64,000 nucleotides of DNA from Candidatus Hydrogenedentota bacterium (GTDB taxonomy: Bacteria; Hydrogenedentota; Hydrogenedentia; Hydrogenedentales; SLHB01), in the NCBI GenBank assembly GCA_963745075.1, contig CAVUWV010000024.1, forward strand, positions 416,001 to 480,000, given 5' to 3'. Of the stretch, positions 7,891 through 63,150 are shown piece by piece; position 1 is the first letter of the stretch, and each line of letters begins with the position of its first letter. Made by a program: the position numbers and the translations under genes. Under the pieces are notes generated by a model. That model did no database searches, was not told where the DNA came from, and saw only the letters and a program-made list of their open reading frames with translations.

Positions 7891-7997
7891 TTATCTCTTG
7901 CGAGTGTCCCGATAATACGGCGCCTTACACCCGCAAGCAAAAGAAAAACCGGGGACGAACCTCAAGTCCATCCCCGGTTCCACGGTCAACACAATCG

Positions 7998-9059: not shown

Positions 9060-9317
9060 AGTGGATAGTCCTTCCCCAATTCGCTCAGGCAAACGATTCG
9101 TGATGGTACCAAACGAGCGAGACGAATCCAAAGGCTGTAGGCTGTGAGCTGGAGACGCCCGGGCTCGATCGGAGAGCCTTATGAACTGGACGGATCAGCC
9201 CGATCCGACCGATTGGACCCCTCCGTCCGTCCAGTCCATCACGTCCATACTGTCCATCTCTTCTCGACACTCCGGCTACGGTGGGCCAAAGTGTCCCGAG
9301 TCGATGATACGGCCACG

Positions 9318-14576: not shown

Positions 14577-15762
14577 CGAGCGGGGACGCTACGGGCAATT
14601 CGGCGGGCGTTACGTCCCCGAGACGCTCATGCATCCGCTGTTGGAACTCGAACGGGCCTATGCGGAGGCGAAGGAGGACCCCGAGTTCCAGTCGGTCCTT
14701 TTGAAATACCAGGCGGACTACGTGGGCCGTCCCACGCCCCTGTACTTCGCCGCGCGGCTCACCGAACACTTCGGCGGCGCCAAGGTGTACCTCAAGCGCG
14801 AAGACCTTGCCCACACGGGCGCGCACAAGATCAACAACGCCCTGGGGCAGGTGTTGCTCGCCAAACGGATGGGCAAGACTCGCATCATCGCCGAAACCGG
14901 TGCGGGGCAGCACGGCGTCGCCACGGCGACGGCCTGCGCCTTGTTGGGGCTCGACTGCGAAATCTACATGGGCACGGAAGACATGGAGCGTCAGGCGCTG
15001 AACGTCTTCCGCATGCGTCTCCTGGGAAGCAAAGTCACCGCCGTTCCCAACGGTACGCGGACCTTGAAAGACGCCATCAACGAGGCCATGCGCGATTGGG
15101 TCTCGAACGTCGGCGATACCCACTACGTGCTCGGTACGGTCGAAGGCCCCCACCCCTATCCGGTGATTTGCCGCGATTTCCAAAGCATCATCGGACGCGA
15201 AGTCCGCGCGCAGATCATGGAACACGAAAACCGCTTACCCGACCTGCTGATTGCCTGCGTCGGTGGCGGCAGTAACGCCATCGGGCTCTTCTTCGATTTC
15301 ATTCTGGAAGAACAGATCAAAATGATTGGCGTCGAAGCCGGGGGATACGGTCCCGAGACCGGCAAACACGCAGCTCGCTTCGCCGGAGGCGTCGTGGGCA
15401 TGCTGCACGGCGCAATGAGCTACGTGCTCCAGGATACCGACGGCCAGATCATGGGGACCCACAGCGTCTCTGCCGGTCTCGATTATCCCAGCATCGGTCC
15501 CGAGCACGCCTACTGGCGCAGCATCGGCCGCGTCGAATATGCATACGCCAAGGACGACGAGGCCCTGGAAGCCTTCCAACTGATCAGCCGCCTCGAAGGG
15601 ATTATCCCGGCCCTCGAGAGCGCCCACGCCATCGCCCATGCGGCCAAAGTCGTTCCCAAAATGTCCAAGGACGAAATCGTGATCGTCAACATGTCCGGGC
15701 GCGGCGACAAAGACGTGCAGCAGGCCGCCCGGTTCATTCTGGGCGAGGAGGAAAAGTCGTGA
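14551..15762 (+). CDS. trpB: Tryptophan synthase beta chain
   Basis: [44 protein letters not shown]. Confidence 0.98.
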
Positions 15763-16577
15763 ACCGTATCGACGCCCGATTCAAATGGTTGGCCGAACAA
15801 GGGCACTCCGCCTTCATTCCCTACATCACAGCCGGCGATCCGACCCTGGACATGACCGCCAAGGTCGTGCTCGAATTGGAAAAGGCCGGCGCCGATGTGA
15901 TCGAATTGGGCATTCCCTTCTCCGACCCCATCGCGGACGGCGTCGTGAACCAGGAGGCCGCATTTCGAGCGCTCAAACACCATGTCAGCCTGCACGACGT
16001 GGTGAAGATGGTCGGGGACCTGCGGAAATCCACCGAGATTCCCTTGCTGCTCTTCACGTATTACAATCCCGTGCTGGCCTACGGCGTTGAAGCCTTTGCC
16101 AAGGATTGCAGAGCGGCTGGAGTCGACGGCGTCTTGTGCGTGGACCTGCCTCCAGAGGAAGATACCGCGTATAAGCGCTGCCTCGACGAAGCGGGCATCG
16201 CGACCGTGTTTCTCATCGCCCCGACCAGCACGGACGACCGCATCGAACTGCTGGCCAAGAGTTCGACCGGCTTCGTCTACTACGTGTCCCGTACCGGCGT
16301 AACCGGAGTCCGTGCCGCCATGGAAACGAGCGTCAAAGGCATGGTCGACAGGATCAAGCAACATACAAAGACGCCCGTCGCCGTCGGGTTCGGCATCTCG
16401 AAACCGGAACACGCTGCCGAAGTGGCCGGGTACGCCGACGGCGTTATCGTAGGCAGCGCCATCGTCCGGATGATAGGGGAGTTGGGGGAGTCGCCGAACA
16501 TGCCGGAGAAGGTGGGGGCCTTCGTGAAGTCCCTCGCGGATGCAACCAAGTCGGGAAAGGCAAAGGCACCTGCTTGA
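15759..16577 (+). CDS. trpA: Tryptophan synthase alpha chain
   Basis: [41 protein letters not shown]. Confidence 0.98.
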
Positions 16578-29504: not shown

Positions 29505-30067
29505 ACGTGGAACGTGTGGCGCAGTTGGTTCGAGAACTGCTCGTCGAAATCGGCGAAGATCCCAATCGCGAGGGCTTGCTAAAGACGCCCCAGCGCGTTG
29601 CCCAGGCCTACGAGTACCTTACCTCGGGATACCGGACCGATCTCAGCGAAATCATCAACGGCGCCGTCTTCGAGTCCCACGCCAACAACATGATCATCTC
29701 GCGCGACATCGAAGTCTACAGCATGTGCGAACACCACATCCTGCCCTTCTTCGGAAAGACCCACATCGGTTACATCGCGCGCAAAAAAGTCCTCGGCATC
29801 AGCAAGTTGTCCCGTATCGTCGACTATTACGCCCGCCGCCTTCAGATCCAGGAACGGCTCACCGCCGAGATCGCCCGCGAGATCATGGACGTGACCGATG
29901 CCGAAGGCGTCGGCGTCGTCATGGAGTGCCGCCATATGTGCATGATGATGCGCGGTGTCGAAAAGCAGAACTCCATCATGACCACCTCGTCCGTCCTCGG
30001 TAGCTTCCTCGAAGAAGACGCCGCCCGCATGGAATTCCTCAGTCTCATCGGCCGCCACGTTACCTGA
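29501..30067 (+). CDS. folE: GTP cyclohydrolase I
   Basis: [39 protein letters not shown]. Confidence 0.97.
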
Positions 30068-30170
30068 CGCGAAACCAGCCAGGACACATAGGCCGAGTGA
30101 GGGATCCGTCGAATCCCCGCGTCCATACCGTCCATCAAGTCCATATCGTCCATAGCCGTAGCGCGCCGCC

Positions 30171-30958
30171 TCATAACGCCAGCAGCAACACCCGAACCCC
30201 GACAAACGCCAGCGCAACCGCCAACGCCCGCACGATCAGCGCCCCCGCAGACGTTCCGACAGCGCCGCCCCAATTTGCGCGCCGATGACGACGCCAATTG
30301 CCAGGCACATCGTGCGGTGAATCCCTTCCGAGTAAGGCCCCCGTCACAACGTGGACCGCCGTGCCGGTCAGCGCAGTGATGGCCAAAATGAAGTGGGAGG
30401 TAGCGGTAGCGTAATGGACGGGGAAGTTCAGCACGTGAACCATCGCGGGCACGTGGACGATGCCCCCGCCGAATCCCAGAAGTCCGGACAGGTACCCGAC
30501 CAGAAAACTAATCGAAACCCCGAGCCAAACGTTGTACTGGATCGACTTTGGGTCATATCCGCCGGAAGTATTGTCCATTCAGTTTCCTTCGGCTTGCTCG
30601 GCCGCCACAGGAGATACCCGGACATCGTCAACATGAGCACCCCGCAAATCGCATCGAAGGCGTGACGAGGAACGTAATACGTGGAAAGCGCCCCCAACAC
30701 CGCCCCCGGCATCGCCGCCGCCGAAAACTGCAACCCCGCGCGATAATGAATGCGGTGTTTCCGGCCGTACGCCCACGAGCCCGACAGCGCGTTAAAGAAG
30801 ACTACCGCCAACGAGATGCTCGTAATCGTCTCGGGGTTTGCGTCGGGGTAGAGGATCAGCAACATCGGGACCAGAATGAAACCGCCGCCCGCCCCGATCA
30901 GCGTCCCAAACGCGCCGATCAACAATCCCAACGGCACCAGCCACAGATACTCAAACAT
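30171..30958 (-). CDS. TauE/SafE sulfite exporter family protein (frameshifted)
   Basis: GTLIGAGGGFILVP in 30428..30958; SGLLGFGGGIVHVP and ATATSHF in 30171..30578. Confidence 0.85.
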
Positions 30959-31322
30959 TCCATCACTCCGCCGGGATTGAAATTCTCACCCGCGAACGGT
31001 CATTCCACACCTATCACGGACATCTATCTGTCAATATCGTGCCGTGGCTGCGCCGTCCCAGTCAACGATGCCCCACCCGGCGGACCCACGCATTCATAGT
31101 CGCCGACCGCGCCAACTGACAAACCGATGGATTTCGTCTTCCCGTTCCCCGTACACTTGCCACGGGGGAATGACCTGCATTTTTTTGGGGGGATCCATGC
31201 TACGACACCGGGGGAAAGCCGCACTTTATGGCCGTGTACCAAGCGCACGGCGATGTCCCACTGGGACCGCCACGCTCCAGCGTGGCAAACGATGGCAACC
31301 GAATCCCAACTCCTCAAGCGGG

Positions 31323-31396
31323 CCATTCGTTTCGGTTATTTCCCATTTCGGTCATTCGAATTTGTTTCGGATTTCGAGCTTCGGATTTCGAATTTG
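31323..31396. repeat. Heptamer-type repeat element (TTTCGGATTTCGAGCTTCGGATTTCGAATTT)
   Basis: Reverse-complement copy at ~37254-37305. Confidence 0.7.
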
Positions 31397-31454
31397 TCTT
31401 TATCCCCAACCTTAACACGCTTCGCATTGCACCTGCCCACGGAGGTCGCCCCCA

Positions 31455-32570
31455 ATGGTAGCTGCCAACCCGCTGCTCGGAACCCTCCTCCACGCCTTCG
31501 GCGCCATGGCCGCAGCGCTGTGTTACACGCCCCAACAGAAACTCCGCGGCTGGTCCTGGCAGACCTACTGGCTCGCACAGGCCTTCCTCTGCTGGTTTGC
31601 CTTGCCTATCATCGGCGCGTACCTGACCATTCCCCACTTGGGGGAGGTGCTCCGAGCGGCCCCGAGGGACGCGATGGAGATCACCTTCGTCCTGGGCATC
31701 ATCTACGGCATCGGCGGAACCGCCTTCGGCCTTGCCATTCGGTACATCGGCTACTCCCTGACTTATGCGATTGCCATCGGCATCTCCTGCGTGCTCGGCA
31801 CCCTCACCGGTCCCCTCATCAGCGGCGCGCTCCGCGAACTGCTCACCAAGACCGGTTCCGGCTGGGTTATGAGCGGCATCTTCATCGGCGTCGCGGGCAC
31901 CCTCCTCTGCGGTTGGGCCGGACGCCTCAAAGAACGCGAACTCGAAAAGGACGCCGCTGCCAGCCAGTCCTTCTCCCTGACGAAAGGCCTCCTGCTGTGC
32001 CTCCTCGCGGGCGTCTTCTCCGCCGTCTACGGCATCGCCGTCAACGACACCGGCCGTCCCATCGCCGATACCGCCGCCGAATTCGGCGCGGGCTACTGGC
32101 AGACCAACGTCGTCTACATCTTCTCCAACAGCGGCGCCTTCCTGACCACCTTGCTCTACACCCTCTGGCTGGGCCGGCGCGAAAAGACCTTTGGTGAATT
32201 CCGGCGTGTGCGGGAAACCACGCAAGACGCCCTCCCCGCGAAGTCGCCGTGGAAGAACCGCGCCGACGCCGCGGCGCGCTGCCCATGAACTACGCCATGG
32301 CCCTCCTCACCGGCTGCCTCTGGTACTCCCAATTCCTCTTCTACGGCCTCGGCCACGTCCGCATGGGCGAATTCGAATTCTCCAGCTGGGCCATTCACAT
32401 GATCATGCTCATCCTCTTCAGCAGCCTCACCGGCATCGTCCTCAAGCGAATGGCACGGCCGCCGGAGACTGACCAAAGCCCTGATCACCCTGGCCTTCAT
32501 CATCCTCGTCGCAGCGGTGATTATCATCACGTACGGCAACTACCTCGGCGAACAAGCCGCGGGCGGGTGA
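31455..32570 (+). CDS. rhaT: L-rhamnose/H+ symporter RhaT-like (frameshifted)
   Basis: PQQKLRGWSWQTYW, GIGGTAFGLAIRYIGYSL, LWYSQFLFYGLG, SSWAIHM. Confidence 0.8.
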
Positions 32571-32590
32571 CGCACCCCGCGAAACGCCCC

Positions 32591-32671
32591 ATGTAGCGCA
32601 GGCGTCCCGCCTGCAATGTCGCTAGATTATGTTGAACCAACAAGAATGCAGGCGAGACGCCTGCGCTACAT
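32591..32671. repeat. GTAG-type REP doublet (REPIN) ATGTAGCGCAGGCGTCCCGCCTGCA...TGCAGGCGAGACGCCTGCGCTACAT
   Basis: Also at 38333-38410 (doublet) and 61308-61333 (single). Confidence 0.88.
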
Positions 32672-32767
32672 TCCGTGTCCCTTTCGTATAGGGTTTCGGG
32701 TAGAGACTCTTAATCGTACCGTCCCCATGGGATTGAAGAATCAACGCGGCTGGAAGCCGCGTCTACG

Positions 32768-33679
32768 CTATTGCTCTGTCTGGTCGTCGGCCGATTTGCC
32801 GGTGTAGGTGGCTTCGGCGTGGGCGCGCTCGGGGGAGCCGATGGGGTACGCCTCGGGCGGGACTTTGCCGGTTCGGACGGCGTCGAGGTAGTCCTGGAGG
32901 AGTTTGGCGGATTCGGGGGACAGGTCTACTTGGTTGGGGGCGTCGGTGGTTGCGGGATCTCCTTGTTCGTTTTCGGGTTGGGGCGGGAGGTGGAGGTGGC
33001 CGAGGATGGCTTCGGCGAGTTCTTGGGAGACGGATTGTTTGGCGGGGCGGTAGCTGGCTAGGACGTGGTCGCGTTCGGACGTGGCGAATGCTTCGTCGAT
33101 GCGGCCGGCTTCGTCGAAGGCTTCGCACATTTCGATGTCGCGGCCTTGGCCTCCGGCGAGGGTGGCGCGTTGGATGTAGGCTTTGGCGTGGGTCTCGGGG
33201 GTTTGGGGCGGGAGTTGGGCGTCGGCCAGGGAATCGGGGTCGAGGCCGGTGTCGTGTTGGGCGCGTTGGGCGTGGCGGAGGACGCCGTCGGCGGAGGGGG
33301 GTGCACCCATGTTGTTTTGACGGAACAAGGGGGTGTTGGGCTGGGCGTAGAGGAGTTTTAGGGTGTGGCGGTATTCGCGCATAAGGCGGGTGAAGGCGAG
33401 GAGGGTGTTGGGGTTAAGGGTTTCGGGAGGACCAGAACAAGAGGAAGAACACAGGCTAGAAGCCTGTGCTCCAGAGGATGAAGAACACGGGCGGGACGCC
33501 CATGCCCCAGGGGGGGAAGCCCATACTTCCGGGGCCTGGGCCAAATGGGTGGTGGCGGCGTTGACGAGGACTTGGAGCATGGCGACGTTGTGGGCGGTGT
33601 GGATGCCCATGGGGTTGGGGTGGGGTTGGGATTCGACGATGGCGAGGGCGTCGGTTAGGACGGTGTTGTATTCGGCCAA
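32768..33679 (-). CDS. Hypothetical protein downstream of the HGGxSTG gene
   Basis: 303-aa ORF with C-ending codons; contains an in-frame REP-derived segment; start uncertain. Confidence 0.55.
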   Translation of the reverse strand: MAEYNTVLTDALAIVESQPHPNPMGIHTAHNVAMLQVLVNAATTHLAQAPEVWASPPGAWASRPCSSSSGAQASSLCSSSCSGPPETLNPNTLLAFTRLMREYRHTLKLLYAQPNTPLFRQNNMGAPPSADGVLRHAQRAQHDTGLDPDSLADAQLPPQTPETHAKAYIQRATLAGGQGRDIEMCEAFDEAGRIDEAFATSERDHVLASYRPAKQSVSQELAEAILGHLHLPPQPENEQGDPATTDAPNQVDLSPESAKLLQDYLDAVRTGKVPPEAYPIGSPERAHAEATYTGKSADDQTEQ

Positions 33680-33821
33680 CTGATAAACGCAGGTGGCTGG
33701 CGATTGCGGGGGCGCGGGGTCGGGGGAATGGGACGTATAGGACGAAGAATCGCACGGATCGGACCGATCGGTCGGGTGGGGAAACTCTGAAGATGGGTCC
33801 CCGCCTGCGCGGGGATGACGG

Positions 33822-34154
33822 TTAACGCGGTGTGTCGTGGGTGTTGGCGAGGGGGCAATTCTCCCAGTGGGGGCAGGCGTTGGTGCAGGGTCTCAGGCGG
33901 CGGGAGTAGAGGCCGTGGATGTGGGCGTTGCGGTTGCCGGGGGGTGCGCCGGTGAGGTCGAAGCCGCCGTGGAATTGGCAGCGTCCGGAGGGGTGGTCGG
34001 ATTCGTTGCAGCAGGGCGTGCCGTCGGGGAGGCGTGCGCCGCAGATTCGGTGGTTGAGTTCGGTTTCTTTGGCGTTGACGGTGGCGATCCAGTCGTTGGT
34101 CCAGGAGCGGGCGCAGGGGGTGCCGAGATTCGTGAGGGTGGGGTTGGTTGGCAT
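33822..34154 (-). CDS. HGGxSTG-domain protein (phage small-terminase-associated family)
   Basis: ICGARLPDGTPC...GRCQFHGGFDLTGAPPGNRNAHIHGLYS; AAGGAA RBS before MPTNP. Confidence 0.75.
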   Translation of the reverse strand: MPTNPTLTNLGTPCARSWTNDWIATVNAKETELNHRICGARLPDGTPCCNESDHPSGRCQFHGGFDLTGAPPGNRNAHIHGLYSRRLRPCTNACPHWENCPLANTHDTPR

Positions 34155-34224
34155 GGGTGGATTCCTTCTTATAAGGGTAGGCGGAAATGTCCTTATAGAT
34201 ATTGCGCGGGGGGTTGCAGTCGAA

Positions 34225-35320
34225 GAGGACCTCACCACGAAGGCGCGAAGGATACGAAGATGGGATGGGGAAATAATGAATCAAAGAACTATGAATGGCT
34301 GGCGTAGGGAAATGAAGAAAGACAAAACAATGGAACGCGGATTTGGCGGATGGTGCGGATTGGCGCGGATTTTCTGTCGGGGAGGGGGAAGAGGATACTC
34401 ACCGCGAAGACGCGAAGGGCGCGAAGATGGGAGGGCTGGAGTCTGGAATCACTGGGAGCGCCTGGCACCAGCCTAGCGAGGGTCAGAGGGGAAATGAAGA
34501 AGGTCAGAACAATGGAACGCGGATTTGGCGGATGGTGCGGATTGGCGCGGATTTTCTGTCGGGGAGGGGGAAGAGGATCTCACCGCGAAGACGCGAAGGG
34601 CGCGAAGATGGGAGTCTGGAGTCTGGAATCACTGGGAGCGCCTGGCACCAGCCTAGCGAGGGTCGGAGAGGGGAAATTGCGAATTAGGAATTACGAATTA
34701 GGAATTGGGGAGGAGGCGGGAGGCTGGCGTGAAATTGTGAAGGAGAGAACAATGGAACGCGGATTTGGCGGATGGTGGGGAAGAGGATCTCACCACGAAG
34801 TGCACGAAGGACACGAAGATGAGAGGGGGAAATGATGAATTGAAGAATTTTTAATGGCTGGGGGCACGGAAATGAAGCAATGGAACGCGGATTTGACGGA
34901 TGATGCGGATTGGCGCGGATCTTTTATTGGGGAGGGGTCGAAGAGGATCTTACCGCGAAGACGCGAAGGGCGCGAAGATGGGAGGGCTGGGGGCAGGGAA
35001 ATCAAGAAAGATAGAACAATGGAACGCGGATTTGGCGGATGGTGCGGATTGGCGCGGATCTTTTGTTGGGGAGGGGTCGAAGAGGATCTTACCGCGAAGG
35101 CGCGAAGGACGCGAAGATGGGAGGGCTGGAGTCTGAAATCACTGGGAGCGCCTGGCACCAGCCTGGCGAGGGTCGGAGGGGGAAACGTTTGCGGGTTTAG
35201 GGAAGTCTGTAGTCCGTAGCCTGGAGGAACAAAGGCGAAGAGTGAAGAGGATTTGTCCGCAGATGGCGTGGATTGGCGCGGATGAAGAGAAGAGTGTGGG
35301 TCCACAGATTTCACAGATTC
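34225..35320 (+). repeat. Modular tandem array of co-oriented repeat arms
   Basis: AATGGAACGCGGATTT at ~34329, 34511, 34751, 34879, 35017, interleaved with CCGCGAAGACGCGAAGGGCGCGAAG and ACTGGGAGCGCCTGGCACCAGCC. Confidence 0.9.
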
Positions 35321-35715
35321 TCACATATGTACTATGAAACGGGATTCATATTGGCCCCGTTAGGGGCTTCGGATTTTAGCCCAGGGTGGAGCGAGGCACG
35401 AGCGGAACCCTGGGTCCAAGGACCCCTTCGCGATCAAGCCCTGGAAAGGGCGGAGGAACCGGTCGCACCCGTTGAATGAACTGCGACAGAAATTCACGAT
35501 TTTGATTGTGAGTAGTACAGATTTACACCGATTTAGGAGGTAAGAAAGGCATTTGAGATTTGAGGAGGGAATCACTGGGAGCGGCTGGCCGTCATCCTAG
35601 CGAACGCGGGGACAGCCTGGCGGGTTGGGATGGGAAATGGGGAATTGGGAATTACGAATTAGGAATGGCTGGGCGGGGTCGGGATGTGTGATTTGCCCGG
35701 AATTTCGTAGTCTGT

Positions 35716-35854
35716 GGAGCCGTTGAAAAACCCTGCCCCATTGCGACGACACCACAATTTGGGTTTCAAGATTGACCTACAAGCGGCGATCTCCCTTGAA
35801 GATGAATCTAAGCAGGGTCATTTACGGACCTGCCGGGACTTTTTCAACGGCTCC
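35716..35854. mobile_element. 139-bp MITE with 15-bp TIR and 5-bp TSD
   Basis: GGAGCCGTTGAAAAA / TTTTTCAACGGCTCC flanked by TCTGT at 35711-15 and 35855-59. Confidence 0.85.
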
Positions 35855-35894
35855 TCTGTCCCTTAATTTCCTTGGGGTAGTTTGGCAGGGCAGT

Positions 35895-36905
35895 TCACCC
35901 TGACTGATCATCATGTTTGTCATCGACGGCTTCCGCGCCGCCCCAATACCTAGCGACCGTTTCGCTCACATTGTCGTAGGTCGGAAACATATAAGCCCGA
36001 TTCCTTTTTTCCTTGTAAAGCAGGTCCGACAGTTTCGAAACCTCTCGGTTTGGAAGAGTAAGTTTTACAAGAACAGGCGGATCAACGACGTGGGACGCCA
36101 TTACTCGCTGGATTACGTCTTCTAAACACGGCCATTTCCTGTCACGCTCAAAATCATTATATGCCTTGTCGTAGTAAGTGAAGACACCATCCTGTGCGTG
36201 AATGAACTCAAATCCATGGTGATGTACTGCGAATTTCTTGATGTGTCGGTGGCGCAATCCCTTGAGCGTAGCTAGATCAAGCGCCCACACCGCAATTCGG
36301 TCCGGCGGTTGCTCATTACTATCACTTCTGCAACCCGGCTCTCGGGTCGCAAAATAGGCAGCTACCAATGGATCAAGAGTCCAGTCTAATAACATTGTTG
36401 GGATGCCGTGGTGTTGAGCGAAAGCCATCGCCTGTGTTGGAAACTTGAAGTGTGACTTGATCTCGGAAATTGTCTGAACCCGATCAACGTATCCGTCTGA
36501 ATCGAAGAACCAATCGTCAGGTATGTATAGACCAACGGCATTACACAATGATCCGAAGTCGTTCACAGCTTGTAACTGCGCCGCCAAATCGACGATGGCT
36601 CGGAAGTCGATTTGCGAGCGGTCCTTTTGCTTGCGATCCCACTCGGCACCGATTTCACTTTCAAATCTGTCGAGTAATTGCTTGTATGGGGAGGTGCGAA
36701 CATCTTCGCGCCATGCTGGGGGGCGTAACGTCCAAGTGCTATCTCTATGGCCCCTGAACAGCCAAGGGCATGTAAGGCCCGGCCCCCACCTTTCGACGTT
36801 CGTAATCCTTAGCTCATTGAGAAACTCGTCAGCACTATCAAGCGGAACGATTTTAATTACGTTCGAATACGTCGCGTGGATGTCGTCAGCGCTATCAATG
36901 CCCAT
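35895..36905 (-). CDS. FRG-domain protein
   Basis: WLFRGHRDSTWTLRP, AQHHGIPTMLLDWTLDPLVAAYFA, AQDGVF; lower GC. Confidence 0.9.
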   Translation of the reverse strand: MGIDSADDIHATYSNVIKIVPLDSADEFLNELRITNVERWGPGLTCPWLFRGHRDSTWTLRPPAWREDVRTSPYKQLLDRFESEIGAEWDRKQKDRSQIDFRAIVDLAAQLQAVNDFGSLCNAVGLYIPDDWFFDSDGYVDRVQTISEIKSHFKFPTQAMAFAQHHGIPTMLLDWTLDPLVAAYFATREPGCRSDSNEQPPDRIAVWALDLATLKGLRHRHIKKFAVHHHGFEFIHAQDGVFTYYDKAYNDFERDRKWPCLEDVIQRVMASHVVDPPVLVKLTLPNREVSKLSDLLYKEKRNRAYMFPTYDNVSETVARYWGGAEAVDDKHDDQSG

Positions 36906-37364
36906 CGTTGTCTACCCTCTTAGCCCCTTTCGTGTCTTTCCGTCCAGATGACAATATAGGTCCCCAATTGTGGCGTCAATACACCTTTCGGACACACAAC
37001 CAACACACTTTCCCGAAACCGCCGAAACCTGCCGGATTGCGTGTTGCCACTGTTGCCCTGTAATCGTTAAAAAAGGACTTGCGCCTGGCCGTCCGTATTA
37101 CACGGGCCTACACGGACGGAGGACCTGGGCGGGGACTGGAGGAAGATGGGTCCCCGCGTTCGCGAGGATGACGGGGTTGGAGATTGCGGATTGCGGACTG
37201 CGGATTGCGGATTTGAAGAGCACGGACTTGCACGGGTCGGCGTAGCCGCAGCTAAATTCGAAATCCGAAGCACGAAATCCGAAACAAGTTTGAATGACCG
37301 AATAAGGAATGAGCGAAACGCGCTTTTGGCTGATGGCGAGCGAGGTGCCGGGGGCACATGTCGC

Positions 37365-37924
37365 GGCGGCCAGGCTGGTGCCTGGCGGTCCCAGTGGTGC
37401 GGAAGACGCCCGGCGTGGAAGCCGGGCGCTACGGTGTGGAGGCTAGTTGATGGGGTGTAGCGTCGGCCTTTTCGATGGTTGGTTTGGGCTTCGAGGCGGC
37501 CAGGCTGGAGCCTGGCGGTCCCAGTGGTGCGGAAGACGCCCGGCGTGGAAGCCGGGCGCTACGGTGTGGAGGCTAGTTGATGGGGTGTAGCGTCGGCCTT
37601 TTTCGATGGTTGGTTTGGGCTTCGAGGCGGCCAGGCTGGTGCCTGGCGGTCCCAGTGGTGCGGAAGACGCCCGGCGTGGAAGCCGGGCGCTACGGTGTGG
37701 AGGCTAGTTGATGGGGTGTAGCGTCGGCCTTTTTCGATGGTTGGTCTGGGCTTCGAGGCGGCCAGGCTGGTGCCTGGCGGTCCCGGTGGTACGGAGAACA
37801 GCGCGGCGTGGAAGCTGGACGCTACGGTGTGGAGGCTAGTTGATGGGGTGTAGCGTCGGCCTTTTTCGATGGTTGGTTTGGGCTTCGAGGCGGCCAGGCT
37901 GGTGCCTGGCGCTCCCAGTGGTGC
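37365..37924 (+). repeat. Tandem repeat, ~131-bp unit x 4.3 (BIME-like)
   Basis: Units start at 37365, 37495, 37626, 37757, 37889; each has CCAGGCTGGTGCCTGG and a CCCGGCGTGGAAGCCGGGCGCTAC-type palindrome. Confidence 0.92.
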
Positions 37925-38518
37925 AACGGGGGGCGGTTTATTTATGGGGGAGGTTTGTGACGTGTGACTTTTGGAGATTGGGATGTTGGATCGATTGGTT
38001 GCGCGGGTTGGAGCGGTTGGGACTGATCAGGAGTTTTGCCCTTTCAGGGCGTTGCGTGGGGGCGGTGCTTGTTTCCCAGGGCGTTGCCCTGGGCTTTCCT
38101 GTTGTGGCCCGTTGGGCCGGAATGTAGAGATTCCAGGTGTAGGCTGGTAGCGCGCACCATAACCAACGGCCCCGGAGTAATCCCCAAGATGCCGCGCATT
38201 TCCAGTGGCCTGGGCTTTCCTGTTGTGGCCCGTCGGGCCAGGATGTAGGAATTGCAGGTGCAGGTTGGAAGTCTGCACCACAACCCAACCGCGGAGTGGT
38301 CCGTGTCCGTCCGTGCCTATCCGTGTAGCCGGATGTAGCGCAGGCGTCCCCGCCTGCAATTCCTGAGATAAAACCGCGAAGAATGCAGGCGGGGACGCCT
38401 GCGCTACATCCGCTGCTCAACCCCGAGAGTGAACCCCAAAATGCCACGGAAATCCAACCGGCTAGCGGCCTTCGCCAACTGCCTTCCGAAGCTCGACAAT
38501 CAAGGTAAGCCCGTGTCC

Positions 38519-40057
38519 ATGGGTGTCGGTCCGTGTCCGTCGATCGAGTCGCGGGCGGTGTTTGCGTGTGAGTATTTGCGGGATCGGCGGGGGCGGCCGT
38601 GGGTGCCGTGGGAGTATCAGCGTCTGTCCTTGGAATCGCAGCGCACCTCGGAAGGTGCATTGCGATGGGCGGGATGTGGGGAAGACGTCGGAAATTGAAA
38701 TCATTGCGGCGTGGGCTTCGGTGATGCGGCCGAATTCGCAGATGTTGATTGCGACGCAGTGTGAGAATCATTTGTTTCCGTTGATGGACCGGATCGTGCG
38801 GGTGTTTGAAAGCGATTCATGGAAAGAGGGACAGACCGGTCTATGGAAGAAAGAGGGAATGAAAGAGGGACATGGGCGTGGAAAAGAGGGACAGACACGT
38901 CTCGGAAAGAAGAGGGACAGACCCGGCTCCCTTCGGTCGCTGGGGTCAGTCCCTTGGTGGAGGTGAAACGGACGCCGTCGTGGTGTTTGCGGTTTGCGAA
39001 CGGGTTTGTGTTGTGGGGGCGGATCGCGGGGCCGCATGGGATGAATTTCCAGGGGCTGCACGTGGATTGGCAGATCGTGGATGAGGCGCAGGAGATGACG
39101 GATGCGGCGTGGGAGGAGATGTTTCAGGCGTTGAACGCCGGCGGGTGGCGCTGGGTGTATGGGGTGCCGAACGGGTTGCGGAACACGTTTCACCGGATGA
39201 CGACGGACCCGGACGCGGAACAGTACAACTGGCCGTCGTCGTCGAATCCGGCATGGTCGGCGGCGAAGGACGCCGAACTGGCGCGGTTGTACGGGGGCAA
39301 GGATTCGCCGGGGTACGTGCATCGCGTGTTGGGGCAACACGGATCGCCGGCGTATGCGGTGTTCGATCTGAACGCGTATCTCGCGTGTGTGGACGAGGGG
39401 ATCGAGTGGTTCGAGGCGTCGCTGGGGGAGGACGACCCCTTCGAGGCGCCGTCGGGGGTGGCGAAGGGGACCTATTACCTGGGCTGCGACCTGGGGTACG
39501 TGCGGGACCCGTCGGAGTTTGTGATCTACCGGAGTGCGCCGCCGGATTTGGTGAACGTGGGGCGGGTGCACTTGCACGGGGTCAATTACCACCGGCAGCA
39601 GGGCATCATCGAGGAGCTGGATCGCGCGTACGACTTCCGGGCCATCGGCATCGATGCGGGGAACAACGGGAGCGCGGTGGCGCATAACCTGAAGAACATC
39701 GACGTGGACTGGCACGAGAAGGTCATGGCCTTTGAGTTCGGCGGCGTCACGGAGACGGGGACGTTTCCGGACGGGACGCCGGACCGGCGTCCGACGAAGC
39801 TGTTCATGACGGAGTTGTTGCAGCGGCGGATGGCGGACCGGACCATTGCTTTTCCGCCGCTGGCGGATCGGGAGTCGCAGTACGCGGGGCACACGTACAC
39901 CGCCGGGATGCGGGGTCAGGTCCTGTTCGACAAGGGGAACGACCATATCATCGACGCGGATCGGTGTGCGGTGCTGGCGCATTACCTCGACACGCAGGAG
40001 GTGGGCGCGCGCAACGTCGGTGGATACTATCCCGGTCTCCGGCTGGAGGCGTTTTAG
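38519..40057 (+). CDS. Phage terminase large subunit-like ATPase/nuclease (frameshifted, with repeat insertion)
   Basis: PWEYQ, Walker A GRDVGKT, Walker B QIVDEAQ, GVPNG, RNase H-like GCDLG, GIDAG, NDHIIDA across ORFs 38429, 38523 and 38819; start uncertain. Confidence 0.8.
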
Positions 40058-40147
40058 TGTCGCGAGGAACGAGTACGAGCAGTCAGGGGCTCAGAACTGG
40101 TGGCTGTTGAACACTCAGGAATCATCCCCGCACTTCCTGTGTTCTTA

Positions 40148-43182: not shown

Positions 43183-43343
43183 AACGCTAGTCCGCGGTAG
43201 GGCGCAGCAGGCCAATCGCTTACACGAGCGTGGCCGACCGTCTTCCCCGTTTGGCACCATTCCTGTTACTGTCTCTCCTCTACGGATGGCTGTGTTCCCT
43301 CGCAAACGTCACTAGGTGTCCGTTACGAAATCGGAGAGAAACC

Positions 43344-43865
43344 ATGAAATGTACAACGTATCGGGAGGCCATTGCGCGATATGGGGACGTGGACGTGCCG
43401 AGTTGCACGTGGCGGGGCGAAGCGCAGTGGATGGTTCTCTTCGATGTTCCGCAGGACATTGCCTCTTCGTGGATCAACGCGGCATCGGGACGCGGCATGC
43501 CGACCCGGCGCATTTACTGCAATCAGGACTTGGTGGGCCCCTTGCGTCGAGCCTTGGAGAACATCCGCAACGCCGGCTTGACCGCTGAACTCAAGACCTT
43601 CGACGGCTGCTTCGACATACGGCTTGTCGGGCGTGGTTCCGGAAAGGTTTCCACGCATGCGTACGGACTGGCAATCGACATCAATGCGGCCGAGAATCCC
43701 CAAGGGGCGCCGCCCACGCTCTCCCTCGAATTGGTTCACTGCTGGGAAGACGCCGGTTTCGATTGGGGTGGACGATTCCAGCGATCGGATGGGATGCACT
43801 TCTCCTACGCCTGGGAAACGACCCACAATCCGGTGTTTGACAAAGCGGTTCGCCAGCGCGTATAG
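43344..43865 (+). CDS. M15-family zinc peptidase (peptidoglycan hydrolase)
   Basis: STHAYGLAIDIN, WGGRF..DGMHF. Confidence 0.85.
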   Translation: MKCTTYREAIARYGDVDVPSCTWRGEAQWMVLFDVPQDIASSWINAASGRGMPTRRIYCNQDLVGPLRRALENIRNAGLTAELKTFDGCFDIRLVGRGSGKVSTHAYGLAIDINAAENPQGAPPTLSLELVHCWEDAGFDWGGRFQRSDGMHFSYAWETTHNPVFDKAVRQRV

Positions 43866-43967
43866 CCTTGCCTCAGCGCGTTGAACGATTGCAACAGCAG
43901 GTGCCAGATAGTTAACATCCGCTGTCGCCGTGTAACATGTGCCGAGTAAATCCAAGAGGAACCTCCC

Positions 43968-44792
43968 GTGAGCCGTCCAGTCCTGCGATTATTCGATGGG
44001 TTCGATCACACCAACCCGGAGCTTCGCGACGAGGTTCGCGAACTTCAAGAACTCCTGACCCAAGCCGGATACGAACTGAATGCCGACGGTCTCTTCGGCC
44101 GCGAAACCGAGATGATGGTCAAACGGCTGCAACGGGATCGCGGCCTCGATGATGACGGCATCGTCGCGAACAGATCGTGGGCCGCGTTGCTCGACACGGG
44201 CGTTCCCGAGGTCGGTGATAGTCTCGACACCAGCTATCCCCGCGACCATGCCCCGCTGAATCCCCAGCTTGAACTGGTGGATACGTACCGCACCTGGATC
44301 GAAGAAGGTGCGCAACGCACCGGGGTCCGACCGGCCATCATCTGCGGTATCGGATCCCGCGAATCCGACTGGGGGCTGGGCCTGACGCCGGCCGGACCCA
44401 CGGGCACCGGAGATAGGAATCCCCGATCAAAGTCGAAACCGTTCCGGACGGGACCGTTGCCGCCGGATGGGGGAGGGTTTGGGCGCGGTCTGATGCAGAT
44501 CGATTTCGACGCCCACGAATTCGCGCGTACCGGTCCCTGGCACCAGCCCGAGGCCAATATCTATTACGGCTGCATGGTGTTGAAGGGTTCCCTGAGCGTG
44601 ATTCGCCGACGCACCGATCTGGAGGGGGTGCCGCAGTTGCGGGCGGGCATCGCCGGGTACAACTGCGGCGCGGGCAATGTCCTGAAGGCGCTCGAACAAG
44701 GGCGCGATGTCGACTACTATACCGCGCATCGGGACTACTCGCGCGAAGTGCTGAATCGCGCCGGCTGGTTCCACCTGCACGGCTGGGCCTGA
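43968..44792 (+). CDS. Peptidoglycan-binding domain + goose-type lysozyme (GH23)
   Basis: VRELQELL...DGLFG...DGIV; GIGSRES, GRGLMQID, AGYNCG, DYSREVLNRA. Confidence 0.85.
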   Translation: MSRPVLRLFDGFDHTNPELRDEVRELQELLTQAGYELNADGLFGRETEMMVKRLQRDRGLDDDGIVANRSWAALLDTGVPEVGDSLDTSYPRDHAPLNPQLELVDTYRTWIEEGAQRTGVRPAIICGIGSRESDWGLGLTPAGPTGTGDRNPRSKSKPFRTGPLPPDGGGFGRGLMQIDFDAHEFARTGPWHQPEANIYYGCMVLKGSLSVIRRRTDLEGVPQLRAGIAGYNCGAGNVLKALEQGRDVDYYTAHRDYSREVLNRAGWFHLHGWA

Positions 44793-51428: not shown

Positions 51429-54374
51429 ATGCGAGGAACGTCGGATTACAAACCCATTTTTTCAATCGGACAGCGTGTCGGGCGATACACACTCAATTTT
51501 GCGATCGTGGTTATCGCACTGGCGCCCTGCATGCCCTCCCGCGGAGCGGACGGCGACTTCGTCTGGGCGGGGGCCTTGGGCGGTCCCGACTTTGATTATG
51601 GACGTGACGTTGCCGCGGACGATTCCGGCAATGTGTACGCTACGGGCGAGTTTAAGGGTACGGCGGATTTCGACCCTGGCGCGGGGACCTATAACCTGAC
51701 CTCGCTGGGCGGAACCGACATCTATGTGTGCAAGCTGGACAATACCGGCGACCTCGCATGGGCCGTGGCTTTCGGCGCCGCCATCGACGACGACGTGGGA
51801 GAGGCCATTGCGCTGGACGACAGCGGCAATGTCCTGGTCGCGGGATACTTTGCCGGTACGGTGGACTTCGATCCCGGCCCTGGCACGTTCAACCTTACTT
51901 CGGCGAGCAATTCCATAGACGTCTTTGTGCTTAAGCTGGACAACGATGGCAACTTCGTCTGGGCTCGCGCAGTGGGAAGCCCCGACGGGGTCGGAAACCA
52001 TAACGACCGGGCCTACGCAATCGGATGCGACGGCAGCGGAAACGTATACACGACAGGCCGTTTCCAAAGCACCGTCGATTTCGATCCGGGCGCGGGAACG
52101 CAGAATCTTACCTCGAATGGCAACCACGACATCTTCGTGCTTAAATTGGACGGCAACGGCGACTACGTATGGGCCAAGGGCATCGGAGGAATCGCGGAAG
52201 ACTACAGTTTTGCCATTACCGTGAACGGCGTCGGAAACGTTTTCCTGACCGGGACCTTTGCGGGCACGGTCGATTTCGATCCCGGCCCGGGAACATCTAC
52301 TCTGACCGCATACAACTCGAGCTTTGACGCCTATGTGTGCCGGTTGGACGCGACCGGCGCCTTCCTCTGGGCCGGCCAACTGGGCGGTTCCGGCTACGAC
52401 AGCGGGCAAAGCATTGCCGTGGATTCTCAGGGTAACGTCTACTCGACAGGCAGCTTCGTTGACACTGCGGACTTCGATCCCGGTCCCGGTACGTACAACA
52501 TTACATCCAGTTATTCCGCGGCCTACCTATCCAAACTGGACGCCTCCGGTAACTTCATCTGGGCCAGGGCCTTCCTTGGCGAGATCTCGACCGGCAATGG
52601 GATCGCCGCTGCCGGACGCGATTACATCTACATTACCGGGTACTTCAACGGGCCGGTGAACTTCGATCCAGGCTTCAGCGATTTCAGCATGACCTCGTCG
52701 GGCACGGACGCCTATGTCGCCAAATTGAATACGGCGGGTGGCTTCGGCTGGGCTAAACAGCTCGTTGGCGGACCATCGTCGCCTTACGGGGTCAGCCGTG
52801 GTACCGAAATCGCCACCAACGCCAATGGGGACATCTATACGACCGGATACTTCAGTTACGAGGTGGATTTCGACCCGGGTCCAGGGACTTTTCCCATCGA
52901 CACGGGCTCGAGCAGTTCCTATACGAATGCCTTTCTACTCGGACTGGAGGGACTGGTTCCGGAAATAGGGGTTCCGGAGGTATTCGCCGTCACCGCACTT
53001 GACGCGTCTCCCACGAACGCGGTGAGCGTGCACTACGGCGTCACGTTCAGCGAACCTGTCAACGGCGTGGACACGAGCGATTTTGCGGTCACTGCCGTGG
53101 GTGTCACTGGCGCCAGTGTGACAGCGGTCTCCGGAGCTGATGATTTTTATACGGTGACCGTAGGCACCGGCGTGGGAGACGGCGCGATCCGCCTTGACGT
53201 GGTGGACGATGACAGCATTACCGCGTCGGATGACACGATGCCGCTGGGAGGCGCCGGAGCAGACAACGGCAGTTATTCCACCGGCGAGCGCTATACGATA
53301 GATAAGAGCGCGCCCACGGCGACCATCGGGGTCCCCAGCTCCAGTATCACGGCAAACGGACCGGTAACCTACACTGTGACGTATACGGGCGCTGACAGTG
53401 TGACGCTGGTTGCCGGCGACGTGTCGCTGAACTCAGCCGGTGACGCGACCGGAGATGTAGCCGTATCGGGTTCAGGCAATCACACCCGGACCGTCGCGAT
53501 CGGCAATATCACCGGCAATGGCACACTTGGCATATCTATCGGTGCCGGGACCGCGACCGACTTCGCCGGCAACTCCGTGGCTGCGGCCGGACCCAGTGCC
53601 ACGTTTGATGTGGATAGCGCGGCCATTGCGGTGAACATCGGCCCGCCGTCCGTCACACAAACGGATACGGGACCCGTCAGCTATGTTGTGACCTACGACA
53701 ATGTATCGAGCGTGACGCTGAGTCCGGCCGACGTAATCTTGAACGGCACCGGCAACGCGAACGCGTTGATTGCCGTAGGTCCGGTGGTGAAGGCGAAACA
53801 AACCCTGCAACGGCAGGTGACGCTGTCGAGCATTACCGGCAACGGTACCTTGGGCATTTCCATTGCCGCCGGCACGGCGTCGGACGGGTTGGGGCACAGC
53901 GCACCTTCGGCCGGTCCGAGTGCCATGGTTTATGTGGACAACGCGGACCCGGACGTGGACAGCATCGTTCTGTCGCTGACGAAGGGATTGCAGGTCGACC
54001 ACATCGTTACGTTCACGGAAGCCGTGACCGGCGTCGATGTGACGGATTTTACCTTGACCACGACGGGGGCCGTGACCGGCGCCTTTGTTGCCGGTGTAAG
54101 CGGCAGCGGCGCGGTGTACACGGTAACCGTGGATTCGGGCACGGGCAATGGAACGATCCGTCTCGACGTGATCGACGACGATACGATACTCGACAACGTG
54201 GGCAACCCGCTCGGCGGCCTCGGCGCCGGAAACGGCAATTTCCTGGAGGGTCAAATGTACAGCACCGGAACGGGCACGGCCGTGCCGCTCGACTGGCGTT
54301 GGATCTTTGCAGCGCTGCTTGCGGTCGGCGGCGCCGTTATTGGGCGAATGAGGAAGATTCCGCGCAAGACGTGA
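51429..54374 (+). CDS. Large surface protein: SBBP beta-propeller repeats + Ig-like domains + C-terminal anchor
   Basis: Repeated DxSGNVYxTGxFxGTxDFDPG; FSEPV/FTEAVTGV Ig-like domains; VPLDW-TM-basic tail. Confidence 0.88.
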   Translation: MRGTSDYKPIFSIGQRVGRYTLNFAIVVIALAPCMPSRGADGDFVWAGALGGPDFDYGRDVAADDSGNVYATGEFKGTADFDPGAGTYNLTSLGGTDIYVCKLDNTGDLAWAVAFGAAIDDDVGEAIALDDSGNVLVAGYFAGTVDFDPGPGTFNLTSASNSIDVFVLKLDNDGNFVWARAVGSPDGVGNHNDRAYAIGCDGSGNVYTTGRFQSTVDFDPGAGTQNLTSNGNHDIFVLKLDGNGDYVWAKGIGGIAEDYSFAITVNGVGNVFLTGTFAGTVDFDPGPGTSTLTAYNSSFDAYVCRLDATGAFLWAGQLGGSGYDSGQSIAVDSQGNVYSTGSFVDTADFDPGPGTYNITSSYSAAYLSKLDASGNFIWARAFLGEISTGNGIAAAGRDYIYITGYFNGPVNFDPGFSDFSMTSSGTDAYVAKLNTAGGFGWAKQLVGGPSSPYGVSRGTEIATNANGDIYTTGYFSYEVDFDPGPGTFPIDTGSSSSYTNAFLLGLEGLVPEIGVPEVFAVTALDASPTNAVSVHYGVTFSEPVNGVDTSDFAVTAVGVTGASVTAVSGADDFYTVTVGTGVGDGAIRLDVVDDDSITASDDTMPLGGAGADNGSYSTGERYTIDKSAPTATIGVPSSSITANGPVTYTVTYTGADSVTLVAGDVSLNSAGDATGDVAVSGSGNHTRTVAIGNITGNGTLGISIGAGTATDFAGNSVAAAGPSATFDVDSAAIAVNIGPPSVTQTDTGPVSYVVTYDNVSSVTLSPADVILNGTGNANALIAVGPVVKAKQTLQRQVTLSSITGNGTLGISIAAGTASDGLGHSAPSAGPSAMVYVDNADPDVDSIVLSLTKGLQVDHIVTFTEAVTGVDVTDFTLTTTGAVTGAFVAGVSGSGAVYTVTVDSGTGNGTIRLDVIDDDTILDNVGNPLGGLGAGNGNFLEGQMYSTGTGTAVPLDWRWIFAALLAVGGAVIGRMRKIPRKT

Positions 54375-61308: not shown

Positions 61309-62308
61309 TGTAGCGCAGGCGTCCCGCCTGCATTCCTTGGTAGAAGAACATCCCCCTTGATCCCCCTTCAAAGGGGGAGCCGTACGCAACGCTTTGCGTT
61401 GCGTTTTGCGGTTGGCCCGAATCCAGTTTCGGAGCAATTCACAACGTCCATCACTTCAATCTCGTGCATGCAGAACTCCCCCTTTGAAGGGGGATCAAGG
61501 GGGATGTTCTTTGTTTCCTACCAGTCCACTTGACCGGCCAGCGAGGAACACCTTGACTGCACACGTTTCCTCGCGTCTTCTCCTCGACCAATCCGCGATC
61601 CGCAATCCGAGAGGGTGCACCCCCCCTTTGCTTTTTGACGATTCAAGGGGGTGTGCGCCGGGGGTGTGGGCGTGCTTGGTGTTGGTTGTCATGGGCGGCG
61701 TTCTCCTTGTAAATATCAGTGGGGTAGAGGGTTGCAAGGGAAGTAGGCCGGAGGCTGGAGTCCTTGGACTGGTGGAATCGGGGGGGGTGCACCCCCTTTT
61801 TGCTTTTTGACGATTCAAGGGGGGGTGTCGAGTCCGGTCCCCGCGTTCCCCGTGTTCCCCGCGTTCGCGAGGACGAGGAGGAGGATGACGGGTGTGTTCG
61901 GCGATGTTTGGCATGGGCAGAGTGCTCCTTATAAATATTGCGCGGGGCGTTGCAGCGGGAATTAGGCCGGAGTCCGGAGTCGGGAGCCTGGAGGGGGGAG
62001 GGGCGCGGTCAGGACATAGGTAACACTTGAGTGTCCACCGATGGCGCTGATTCCACAGATTAACACGAATTCAAGAAATGGATCGTTGGAAGGGAGCATG
62101 GGCGTCTCGCCCGTGGTGGGGGCGGGGTTGCGCGGCGGTTGGAGATGGGCTGCGTAATGGGGTCACGATTGGGGTGCGGTGAAGCGAAGAGCAACGGGCG
62201 AGACGCCCGTTCTCCCTTGAACCATCCAGTCTGATTCCGATCATCATTTCTGGACCCGCCCGTTCGACTGTCTTCAGCCCCCGGGCGTTCCGCGACGCCG
62301 ACGCTCCC

Positions 62309-63150
62309 CTACACCATCGGCATACTCGCGACAGCGTCGAGCGGGCACCGGTACTGGATGGCGCCGAAGGGGGTTTCGTTGAGATGTTTCGTCATCTTCC
62401 AGGGGGTCATGTCGTCGCGGGCGAGGTGGAACTTGCACGAATTCATCATGCCGTTCATGGACCCGAGCACCGACCGGCTCGCCGTTTTCGCGAGGATGAC
62501 GCTGTCCGTATACGGCGCGATGCACCGTTCGTAGACGAGGCCAGATCCGCAGACCACAGCCCGAACCCCTGCCGTCCCTCTCCCTCTAAACCGCAATCGG
62601 CCCTTCTAGCTTCCAGTCTCCCGACTCCGGACCCCAGCCTGTTATCTGGACCCGCTCCGCCGTAAACACGTTCGCGTACCAGACGAGATGGGGCCGCGTC
62701 TCCGAAGCCACCGTCCCCAACTCCTGCACGCGGAACTTCGCCTCTTGCCTCGGTAATTCGTAGTCTGTCCCTGAATTTTGTGTTCCAGGGGGTCATGTCG
62801 TCGCGGGCGAGGTGGAACTTGCACGAATTCATCATGCCGTTCATGGACCCGAGCACCGACCGGCTCGCCGTTTTCGCGAGGATGACGCTGTCCGTATACG
62901 GCGCGATGCACCGTTCGTAGACGAGGCCAGATCCGCAGACCACAGCCCGAACCCCTGCCGTCCCTCTCCCTCTAAACCGCAATCGGCCCTTCTAGCTTAG
63001 TCTCCCGGACTCCGGACCCCAGCCTGTTATCTGGACCCGTCCGCCGTAAACACGTTCGCGTACCAGACGAATGGGGCCGCGTCTCCGAAGCCACCGTCCC
63101 AAACTCCTGCACGCGGAACTTGCCTCATGCCTCGGTAATTCGTAGTCTGT
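62309..63150 (-). pseudogene. DUF6933-like protein fragments, duplicated and frameshifted
   Basis: WYANVFTAD and AKTASRSVLGSMN...LNETPFGAI motifs recognised from memory of the family. Confidence 0.45.

Follow-up and report, generated by a model that had tools for sequence, protein, structure and literature searches.

What is a pair of DNA-packaging genes doing in a bacterial chromosome with no virion genes beside it? The question arises from a 64,000-nucleotide stretch of a Candidatus Hydrogenedentota genome (the window; assembly GCA_963745075.1, contig CAVUWV010000024.1, positions 416,001 to 480,000), in which a gene resembling the large subunit of phage terminase (TerL) and a gene with an HGGxSTG motif (HGG), a candidate small subunit (TerS), diverge from a spacer that holds an FRG-domain gene. 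An initial annotation had read them as an orphan packaging module, domesticated or hijacking rather than a mere prophage scar. Its inventory holds: motifs, profile matches and repeat analysis confirmed the TerL-like gene, the HGG open reading frame (ORF), the FRG gene and the repeats at 34.2-35.7 kb and 37.3-38.0 kb. No match to the integrase family PF00589 occurs anywhere in the window, and the sole portal and sole capsid gene of this genome (G000, with contigs C1, C8, C12 and C36) both lie on C8. We propose, with about even confidence, that the two genes form a second and mobile terminase pair, a minimal satellite that would redirect the packaging of a host particle resembling a gene transfer agent (GTA) to a DNA site of its own.

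The window TerL carries a Walker A-like CDGRDVGKT, a Walker B IVDEAQ and the nuclease motifs GCDLG, IDAG and DHIIDADRC, and has the N-terminal ATPase, the C-terminal RNase H-like nuclease and the acidic triad of a large terminase. Neither Pfam nor NCBIfam returned a TerL family for these proteins, and a single-sequence search of the Protein Data Bank (PDB) gave no match. A profile built from the intact relatives matched the solved TerL ATPase 4zni (E 9.7e-5) and the nucleases 5m1f and 5tge (E ~1e-3), and Atlas placed TerL in Terminase_6N/6C clusters at 0.99. The catalytic motifs are kept in 48 aligned sequences of the host type, TerL-A, and in 7 of the window type, TerL-B; three more TerL-B sequences are without the N-terminal part in the alignment.

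The term orphan does not apply to these genes. G000 has three TerL copies, of which TerL-A, on C8, is intact (488 aa) and preceded by a 160-aa ORF, the host TerS, that is retained in 25 of 30 loci examined. At a distance of 130 kb from TerL-A, C8 encodes portal, protease-like, scaffold, decoration, capsid, connector, Dit, hub and holin-like proteins, and the matches of portal (E 4e-47), major head protein (E 4e-52) and Dit (E 3e-12) mark the cluster as derived from a caudoviricete; a search with PF04860 that found no portal in G000 was a false negative. The absence of virion genes is thus true of the window and untrue of the genome, where a portal-capsid-tail-tip cluster accompanies an intact TerS/TerL-A pair. 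TerL is present in 56 of 61 relatives and in 90 of 95 genomes of the phylum, and portal in 58 of the 61. The order TerS-TerL-portal-capsid-tail tip is co-linear in G047 (on one contig) and G022, and the TerS-TerL pair lies within 10 kb of the portal in G026, G031 and G057 and more than 1 Mb from it in G051. In several families a 3D-domain lipoprotein gene stands between host TerS and TerL-A (L046 7107-7589; L031, L032, L034).

In the 39 genomes with TerL-A, portal and RpoB all present, the TerL-A and portal trees had 13 of 36 splits in common with the RpoB tree, against 0.31 at random. Well-supported split pairs in conflict with RpoB numbered 6 for TerL-A and 0 for portal, and Mantel rho against RpoB was 0.66 and 0.71, respectively. 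TerL-A dN/dS (the ratio of non-synonymous to synonymous change) was 0.03-0.14 in close pairs and reached 0.56 in distant pairs, where dS is saturated. Linkage, distribution and the host-congruent trees of TerL-A and portal therefore identify TerL-A as the motor of the cluster. On this genomic evidence the phylum retains a vertically inherited TerS-like/TerL-A operon together with a portal-capsid-tail-tip cluster. Vertically inherited and, in some genomes, endogenized over several loci, this helper system has the genomic hallmarks of viriforms, GTAs included, as defined in an excerpt of PMC9662315; that particles form, enclose random host DNA in pieces too short for the GTA genes, and deliver it, are putative functions. 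Two other elements (L041 8857-12400 and L042 4900-10900) carry HNH and replication genes together with a TerL whose identity to TerL-A is 42-44%, with portal and capsid absent nearby; L041 has a host-TerS-like gene and L042 a homolog of the connector of the cluster, and they are possibly a second satellite type or an ancestral lineage.

TerL-B is a derived paralog of this motor. The window copy is ~70% identical to TerL-A, while prophage-like TerLs reach 33-36%. In a tree of 37 sequences picked from the genera concerned plus outgroups, the 10 TerL-B sequences formed one clade (support 100/100) nested in TerL-A and grouped with TerL-A of genus g8; an approximately unbiased (AU) test rejected a TerL-A clade of g1, g8 and g11 that excludes TerL-B (p 0.019, subject to a long-branch caveat). 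No full TerL-B is present in G001, G002 and G012. All 21 pairs of the first 7 copies gave dN/dS of 0.08-0.34, with 0.08-0.11 among the closest pairs and 0.098 for the window copy against the C1 copy; judged by these ratios, TerL-B is under purifying selection. A single-copy TerL, evolving neutrally and closest to intact prophages, would have spoken against the initial annotation, and none of the three was found: G000 has three copies, the window copy is constrained and its nearest relative is a host gene. A prophage scar was rejected as the principal reading.

The partner of TerL-B is a larger gene than the initial annotation had seen. Its HGGxSTG gene is the ORF at 33822-34154 (-), which scores 28.8 bits on NF041373 (HGG_STG; cut-off 29); the assignment is borderline, and the ORF is part of a longer TerS-like gene. 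Together with the 303-aa ORF at 32768-33679 it makes one gene with a frame break, because the paralogs, both on C36 and in relatives, each read through as one ORF 453-577 aa long. Among the HGG genes of relatives, two exceed the 29-bit cut-off (35.8 and 30.1) and two do not (18.9 and 20.2). The family has weak matches to TerS PHROGs and to NF040601, below cut-off, and, among the 120 of 184 matches listed, most are nameless and those with names all come from Hydrogenedentes/Hydrogenedentota. A structural model (mean predicted local distance difference test, pLDDT, 68; 14 sequences) combines Cys/His-rich N-terminal parts with a helix-hairpin-helix core. Its high-probability viral fold matches are mostly small terminases or nameless phage proteins, none significant; the named BFVD matches at probability >=0.93 are, one RNA methyltransferase aside, all eight small terminases, none with E <0.001. 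A small terminase combines a DNA-binding N-terminal part, a helical core for oligomerisation and a link to terL; architecture and linkage fit this, with family matches below cut-off and fold matches at E >0.001. The zinc domains of the TerS-like gene are not present in the 160-aa host TerS.

Pairing with TerL-B is consistent. Three of the 10 TerL-B copies lie at contig ends, and all 7 with assembled surroundings are paired with a multi-copy HGG gene. The two genes are divergent in G000, G021, G098 and G101 (where the contig holds only the first codons of HGG), co-oriented on C1 of G000 and in G003, and fused as one 947-aa ORF in G015; the divergent order that had been noted as unusual is thus real and no one-off, recurring in four genera beside the other forms. 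Two TerL-B 5' fragments were seen, in G099 beside an HGG gene and in G012 without one. A predicted complex of TerL-B with residues 168-462 of the TerS-like protein gave weak support, 0.37 against 0.00 for the best control (at least 18% of contacts agreed between runs, partner pLDDT at least 57). Of 157 solved pairs 116 reach the mark applied, as do 2 of 215 mismatched ones; those that reach it with a score of 0.60 or under are only 18 of the 157 and both mismatches. TerS-TerL is a textbook pair, and likeness to it may therefore help such a prediction to pass. Many HGG copies are solo, without TerL-B. Of 61 genomes, 17 have the HGG gene, with up to 6 matches each and at varying sites, and every one of these also has a portal; the window cassette does not occupy a vertically inherited, single conserved locus of the kind expected of a GTA.

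Inside the TerS-like gene lies an 18-bp site, P2, that is fixed at the DNA level. It was present in 12 of 12 long-type HGG genes checked. Its Leu codon is TTG in 15 of 15 copies, whereas six further columns of conserved Leu use TTG in 0 of 81 cases, and its Arg codon is CGT in 14 of 14, as against 4 of 86 elsewhere, counts to be read with the copies being related and anchored by the site pattern; both codons are held against the strong C-ending bias of the HGG gene. G000 has 41 P2 cores at 28 loci, 4 of them in HGG genes, and 33 have a TGCAAC within 330 nt upstream. About two dozen of these sites are non-coding miniatures, including two at 61.6-62.0 kb, where the dispersed cis copies of the initial annotation proved real. 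In 22 units of promoter-like motif, start codon and P2, the reading frame of P2 is split 9/11/2; a site found in all three frames is therefore not a peptide. The exact P2 pattern occurs in 9 of 61 genomes, whose genera are precisely the four with TerL-B, and the reversed control in 0. In the phages P22 and SPP1 the packaging initiation (pac) site likewise lies inside terS. Miniatures acting as promoters for host genes were considered and rejected for want of an orientation bias.

A second cis element, P1, is common to the cassette and the host particle genes. Its TGCAAC core lies ahead of the portal in 34 of 47 loci and of host TerS in 28 of 37 (with a loose pattern and some genomes counted twice). 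A matrix trained on 25 portal upstream sites, all from other genomes and with the first six letters fixed by construction, found among its top matches in G000 the miniatures, four HGG genes (16.3-24.3 bits), host TerS (22.8), the decoration gene (21.5) and the portal (17.1); at >=17 bits there are 43 matches in the genome against 13-15 in shuffles. Upstream matches of >=13 bits precede 15 of 23 HGG genes, 9 of 24 host TerS genes and 0 of 29 rpoB genes. P1 lies upstream of 4 of 62 TerL regions, two of these being TerL-B, and also precedes TerL-B in G021, G098 and G101. From its position we infer that P1 is a promoter; presumably it resembles the -35 boxes of extracytoplasmic-function (ECF) type. 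Being common to scattered genes, P1 gives independent support to the view that the terminase and head genes of the phylum form one system. Two near-identical D5/P4-type primase-helicase ORFs each stand behind a P1 (L204 ~7920-9320, on contig C20 of G000, and contig C24 ~14600-16100); they may represent a module for amplification, or a further rider of this regulon.

Between the divergent genes, each of the four genera carries a different defence-like cargo: FRG, a dCTP-deaminase-like gene, BrnT, and a PifA-like KAP NTPase. A role in defence is known for dCTP deaminases. The window FRG gene matches PF08867 (E 6e-18) and the PADLOC candidate PDC-S15 (E 1e-26); a defensive role suits the cargo and does not suit the terminase. 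Its second copy, on C12 (88% protein identity; L005 5300-9400, 137-141 kb of the contig), stands between a miniature and a P1 of the TerL-B type, forming a cassette shell in which both terminase genes are missing. Long TerS-like genes, TerL-B and P2 are confined to the four related genera, where the cassettes vary in copy number and position, are often rearranged and leave fragments. In G003, at least two miniatures and one HGG gene occupy orthologous positions that are unoccupied in G000, and target duplications were not visible there; three miniature loci are common to both. A single neighbouring gene has moved along with the TerS-like gene between loci of G003 and those of G000. Around P2, genes within 10 kb show a synonymous difference of <=0.5 between G003 and G000 in 16 of 94 cases, against 1 of 115 controls; by region, such genes occur in 9 of 13 P2 regions and 1 of 10 control regions (14 G003 regions were taken, one without orthologs, and 7 element genes were dropped). 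Downstream of one cassette, AlbA_2/HATPase and AEP-TOTE/ResIII genes (L050 13858-17793) are little diverged from their G000 copies.

In the proposed satellite, P1 as a promoter would switch the cassette on together with the host's GTA-like particle genes, the two thereby being co-induced. The zinc domains added to the TerS-like protein would bind P2, and TerL-B, or TerL-A in the case of solo copies, would cut there and fill host-made heads. The element, its cargo and its flanks would thereby be over-represented in particles, with the miniatures as non-autonomous riders; entry into new sites might occur, as a guess, by recombination between the abundant intergenic repeats. We put forward only tentatively, as somewhat less probable than its opposite, the fuller claim that this is a first GTA satellite: a two-gene packaging-drive element with a motor and promoter captured from the host GTA, a TerS re-armed for sequence specificity, and pac-like miniatures spread over the chromosome, which together bias a "random" particle toward the element and its defence cargo.

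Several observations weigh against this reading. By the RpoB tree, the hosts in the four TerL-B genera belong to a single clade (support 1.00 for three of them, 0.70 for the fourth), and the g1 copies of TerL-B also make up one clade, so that vertical descent after duplication is still compatible with the data. P2 is absent from 7 of 7 distant short-type HGG copies checked. Selection on the TerS-like core is weak (dN/dS 0.24-0.84), a Foldseek search of the PDB with the HGG model gave no match, and aligning the HGG family with that of host TerS by HHalign gave no significant result (probability 0.2). Host TerS is itself identified by position alone; Foldseek of its model found nothing under E 0.7, and a profile search gave 324 relatives, none with a name. 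The cassette was found to have neither an integrase or replication gene nor an att site or a duplicated target, and no neighbour gene is common to 22 HGG loci; spread to new sites would therefore proceed without an enzyme. The excess of little-diverged genes is without direction (9 of 33 genes upstream and 7 of 61 downstream), depends on a threshold chosen once the data were known, and counts genes that are not independent within a region; it therefore fits hitch-hiking and also a preference for exchange hot spots, and directional transfer from P2 was not seen. Between G003 and G000, dS is 0.3-0.5 for TerL-B and HGG and ~0.9-1.6 for host genes, and was set aside as proof of horizontal transfer: the portal is equally low (0.49), which shows that codon skew confounds low dS. 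No tape-measure gene stands above cut-off in G000, which makes DNA delivery by the host particle uncertain. The break density of the window copy, three in 2.9 kb, exceeds the assembly background, so that recent decay of this copy is possible. The host particle, transcription of the cassette, P2 binding, cleavage and packaging are each putative.

The same facts can be arranged otherwise. TerL-B might be a second motor that benefits the host, arisen by duplication in one clade, with site-specific packaging of variable, defence-rich regions and miniatures kept by the host as start sites. The confinement of TerL-B, the long TerS-like genes and P2 to four related genera, the purifying selection, the defence-like cargo and the presence of some miniatures at the same locus in G000 and G003 all agree with this; the patchiness within the clade, the unstable copy number and position with frequent rearrangements and fragments, and the grouping with g8 TerL-A do not, and we think it unlikely, if worth taking seriously. 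More doubtful is that the HGG protein is a regulator or decoy (for example a packaging inhibitor or an anti-terminator) and P2 its binding site on DNA or RNA rather than a packaging start. Many HGG copies are indeed without TerL-B, P2 can fold into a modest hairpin (z below -2 in 15 of 41 cases; median z -1.3), and every miniature retains a promoter-like motif, although a pac site could do without one; yet the miniatures have no preference for a downstream gene, 15 of 28 facing a convergent gene against a background of about 47%, and the fusion to a catalytically intact TerL in G015 fits a motor subunit. We consider it very improbable that the cassette is a satellite of some phage instead of the domesticated particle. 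Other TerL-bearing elements and prophages occur in the phylum, and known satellites rely on phage helpers (an excerpt of PMC10085698); against this, TerL-B descends from domesticated TerL-A, the cassette has the promoter-like motif of the portal, and no viral contig carried a relative of the TerS-like gene in a search with two short patterns only.

Decay without present function, of duplicates in repeat-rich recombination hot spots, also seems improbable, slightly less so than a phage satellite. Both G000 TerL-B copies and 3 of the 4 G000 HGG copies carry frame breaks, the HGG core is weakly selected, and the extreme strand skew suggests an odd mutational regime. One break in the window falls in the TerS-like gene and two in TerL-B, against a background of 9 frameshifts in ~54 kb aligned to congeners (~0.15 per kb), 2 of the 9 being within TerL-B copies. 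However, rpoB of G000, on C8, is itself split twice and rhaT (window 31455-32472) is frameshift-split, which is a sign of indel errors in the assembly, and the breaks in the window may be such errors. Relatives in two metagenomes have contigs without the extra base at 38642, the insert being in frame by gap arithmetic, and in G101 TerL-B is intact, its insert at the matching site being in frame. TerL-B is intact in G003, G004, G015, G021, G098 and G101, the closest pairs are constrained, and P2 is constrained as DNA. The window copy itself may be a pseudogene. The insert lies in one loop of TerL-B, is repeat-derived and of variable length, and is in frame in relatives (window 38823-38945; L001; L189).

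How does the proposed satellite compare with known systems? Like the pac-type phages P22 and SPP1, it has a TerS-like gene with an internal conserved DNA site and a TerL partner; it differs in having no virion or replication genes, in its often divergent terS and terL and in a site repeated at about two dozen chromosomal positions. The miniatures recall miniature inverted-repeat transposable elements (MITEs) and the REP-RAYT system of repeats and transposases in being short, non-coding and non-autonomous and in keeping the cis signals of a parent gene, and one cassette contains a Y1 (IS200-like) transposase (PF01797; L050 8277-8729) between HGG and TerL-B; terminal inverted repeats and target duplication were not seen, and the parent encodes packaging proteins, not a transposase. 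In phage-inducible chromosomal islands (PICIs, including the staphylococcal SaPIs), TerS redirects packaging to DNA of the element, according to an excerpt of PMC10085698, and the proposed redirection by TerS and the accessory defence genes in a variable slot are alike. Unlike them, the window cassette has no integrase or capsid-size gene, no regulator or primase-replicase is found in the cassettes listed, the TerL is captured from the helper, the helper is likely a host-owned particle, and solo TerS copies and miniatures are scattered over the chromosome. The helper resembles the Rhodobacter capsulatus GTA (RcGTA) in its phage-derived genes, endogenized over several loci and descending vertically, and in a short protein at the TerS position that lacks a DNA-binding domain at the N terminus, as described for gp1 in an excerpt of PMC6854486, which states that no start sites of packaging were known for GTAs. 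Its lineage is unrelated, tail tube and tape measure were not identified, and it is known from genes; the patchy, site-bearing window cassette is the opposite of random packaging. Titles and abstract starts described no GTA parasite or satellite, and searches on Hydrogenedentes gene transfer agents, HGGxSTG or Hydrogenedentota terminases gave nothing relevant, subscription journals and supplements being outside these searches.

A host-made particle that packages random DNA is, in theory, open to cheats. If our reading is true, the cassette would be such a parasite of a GTA-like system. The domesticated or hijacking system of the initial annotation survives in that the locus is not merely a scar, and is corrected in that the GTA-like motor is the C8 locus and the window copy a derived, patchy paralog; the window locus is neither scar nor motor, but likely the parasite of that motor. 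On TerLs 70% identical, the genome offers a natural matched pair, a short TerS that lacks a DNA-binding domain and a long one that has a zinc motif and a candidate site. The cause of random packaging by GTAs is therefore testable in vitro, with no need to culture the host.

Table. Positions in the window of the second terminase pair, its cis elements and the spacer between
Feature	Position	Strand	Remarks
TerS-like gene	32768..34154	-	HGG zinc motif, second Cys cluster, helix-hairpin-helix core, long C-terminal domain
Frame break inside TerS-like gene	near 33822-33850	-	intact paralogs 453-577 aa
Promoter-like motif P1 (TGCAAC-N-purine-rich) 5' of TerS-like gene	34193..34218	-	18.2 bits, portal-trained matrix
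Cis site P2, CCCCCTTG-N3-CGTCAAA then GGGTGCACCCC	33298..33333	-	within TerS-like gene; candidate pac-like site
Genome-wide intergenic repeats, mosaic	34219..35700	.	
FRG-domain gene, variable cargo slot, candidate defence gene	35895..36905	-	PF08867; PADLOC PDC-S15
131-nt repeat, five tandem copies	37339..37993	+	
Promoter-like motif P1 aimed at TerL-B	37922..37947	+	18.0 bits; ~600 nt ahead of TerL-B start
TerL-B, large terminase paralog	38519..40057	+	break near 38642; repeat-derived insert ~38823-38945, with a second break
Two tandem miniatures	61610..61954	-	each P1 + ribosome-binding site + start codon + P2; no conserved ORF

Strand skew is extreme around the cassette (window 30000-40100) and in L001, L003, L004, L050 and L051. 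On the coding strand the long-type HGG genes are C-rich and TerL-B is G-rich in either orientation; the skew switches at the 3' end of HGG and reaches into the adjoining rhaT gene. Further along the window (43230-44792), an M15 peptidase gene and a gene with peptidoglycan-binding and SLT domains have endolysin PHROG matches. The latter gene has a P1 motif of 19.8 bits at 43890, the motif being present in 6 of 6 loci scored, and the two may serve the particle regulon of genera g1 and g8 as lysis genes. At 51549-52890 a long ORF region contains coding repeats at ~198-nt spacing with DFDPG-like units, and at 62397-62998 a 216-nt stretch is duplicated exactly in tandem, with the copies 386 nt apart, which may be an artefact of assembly.

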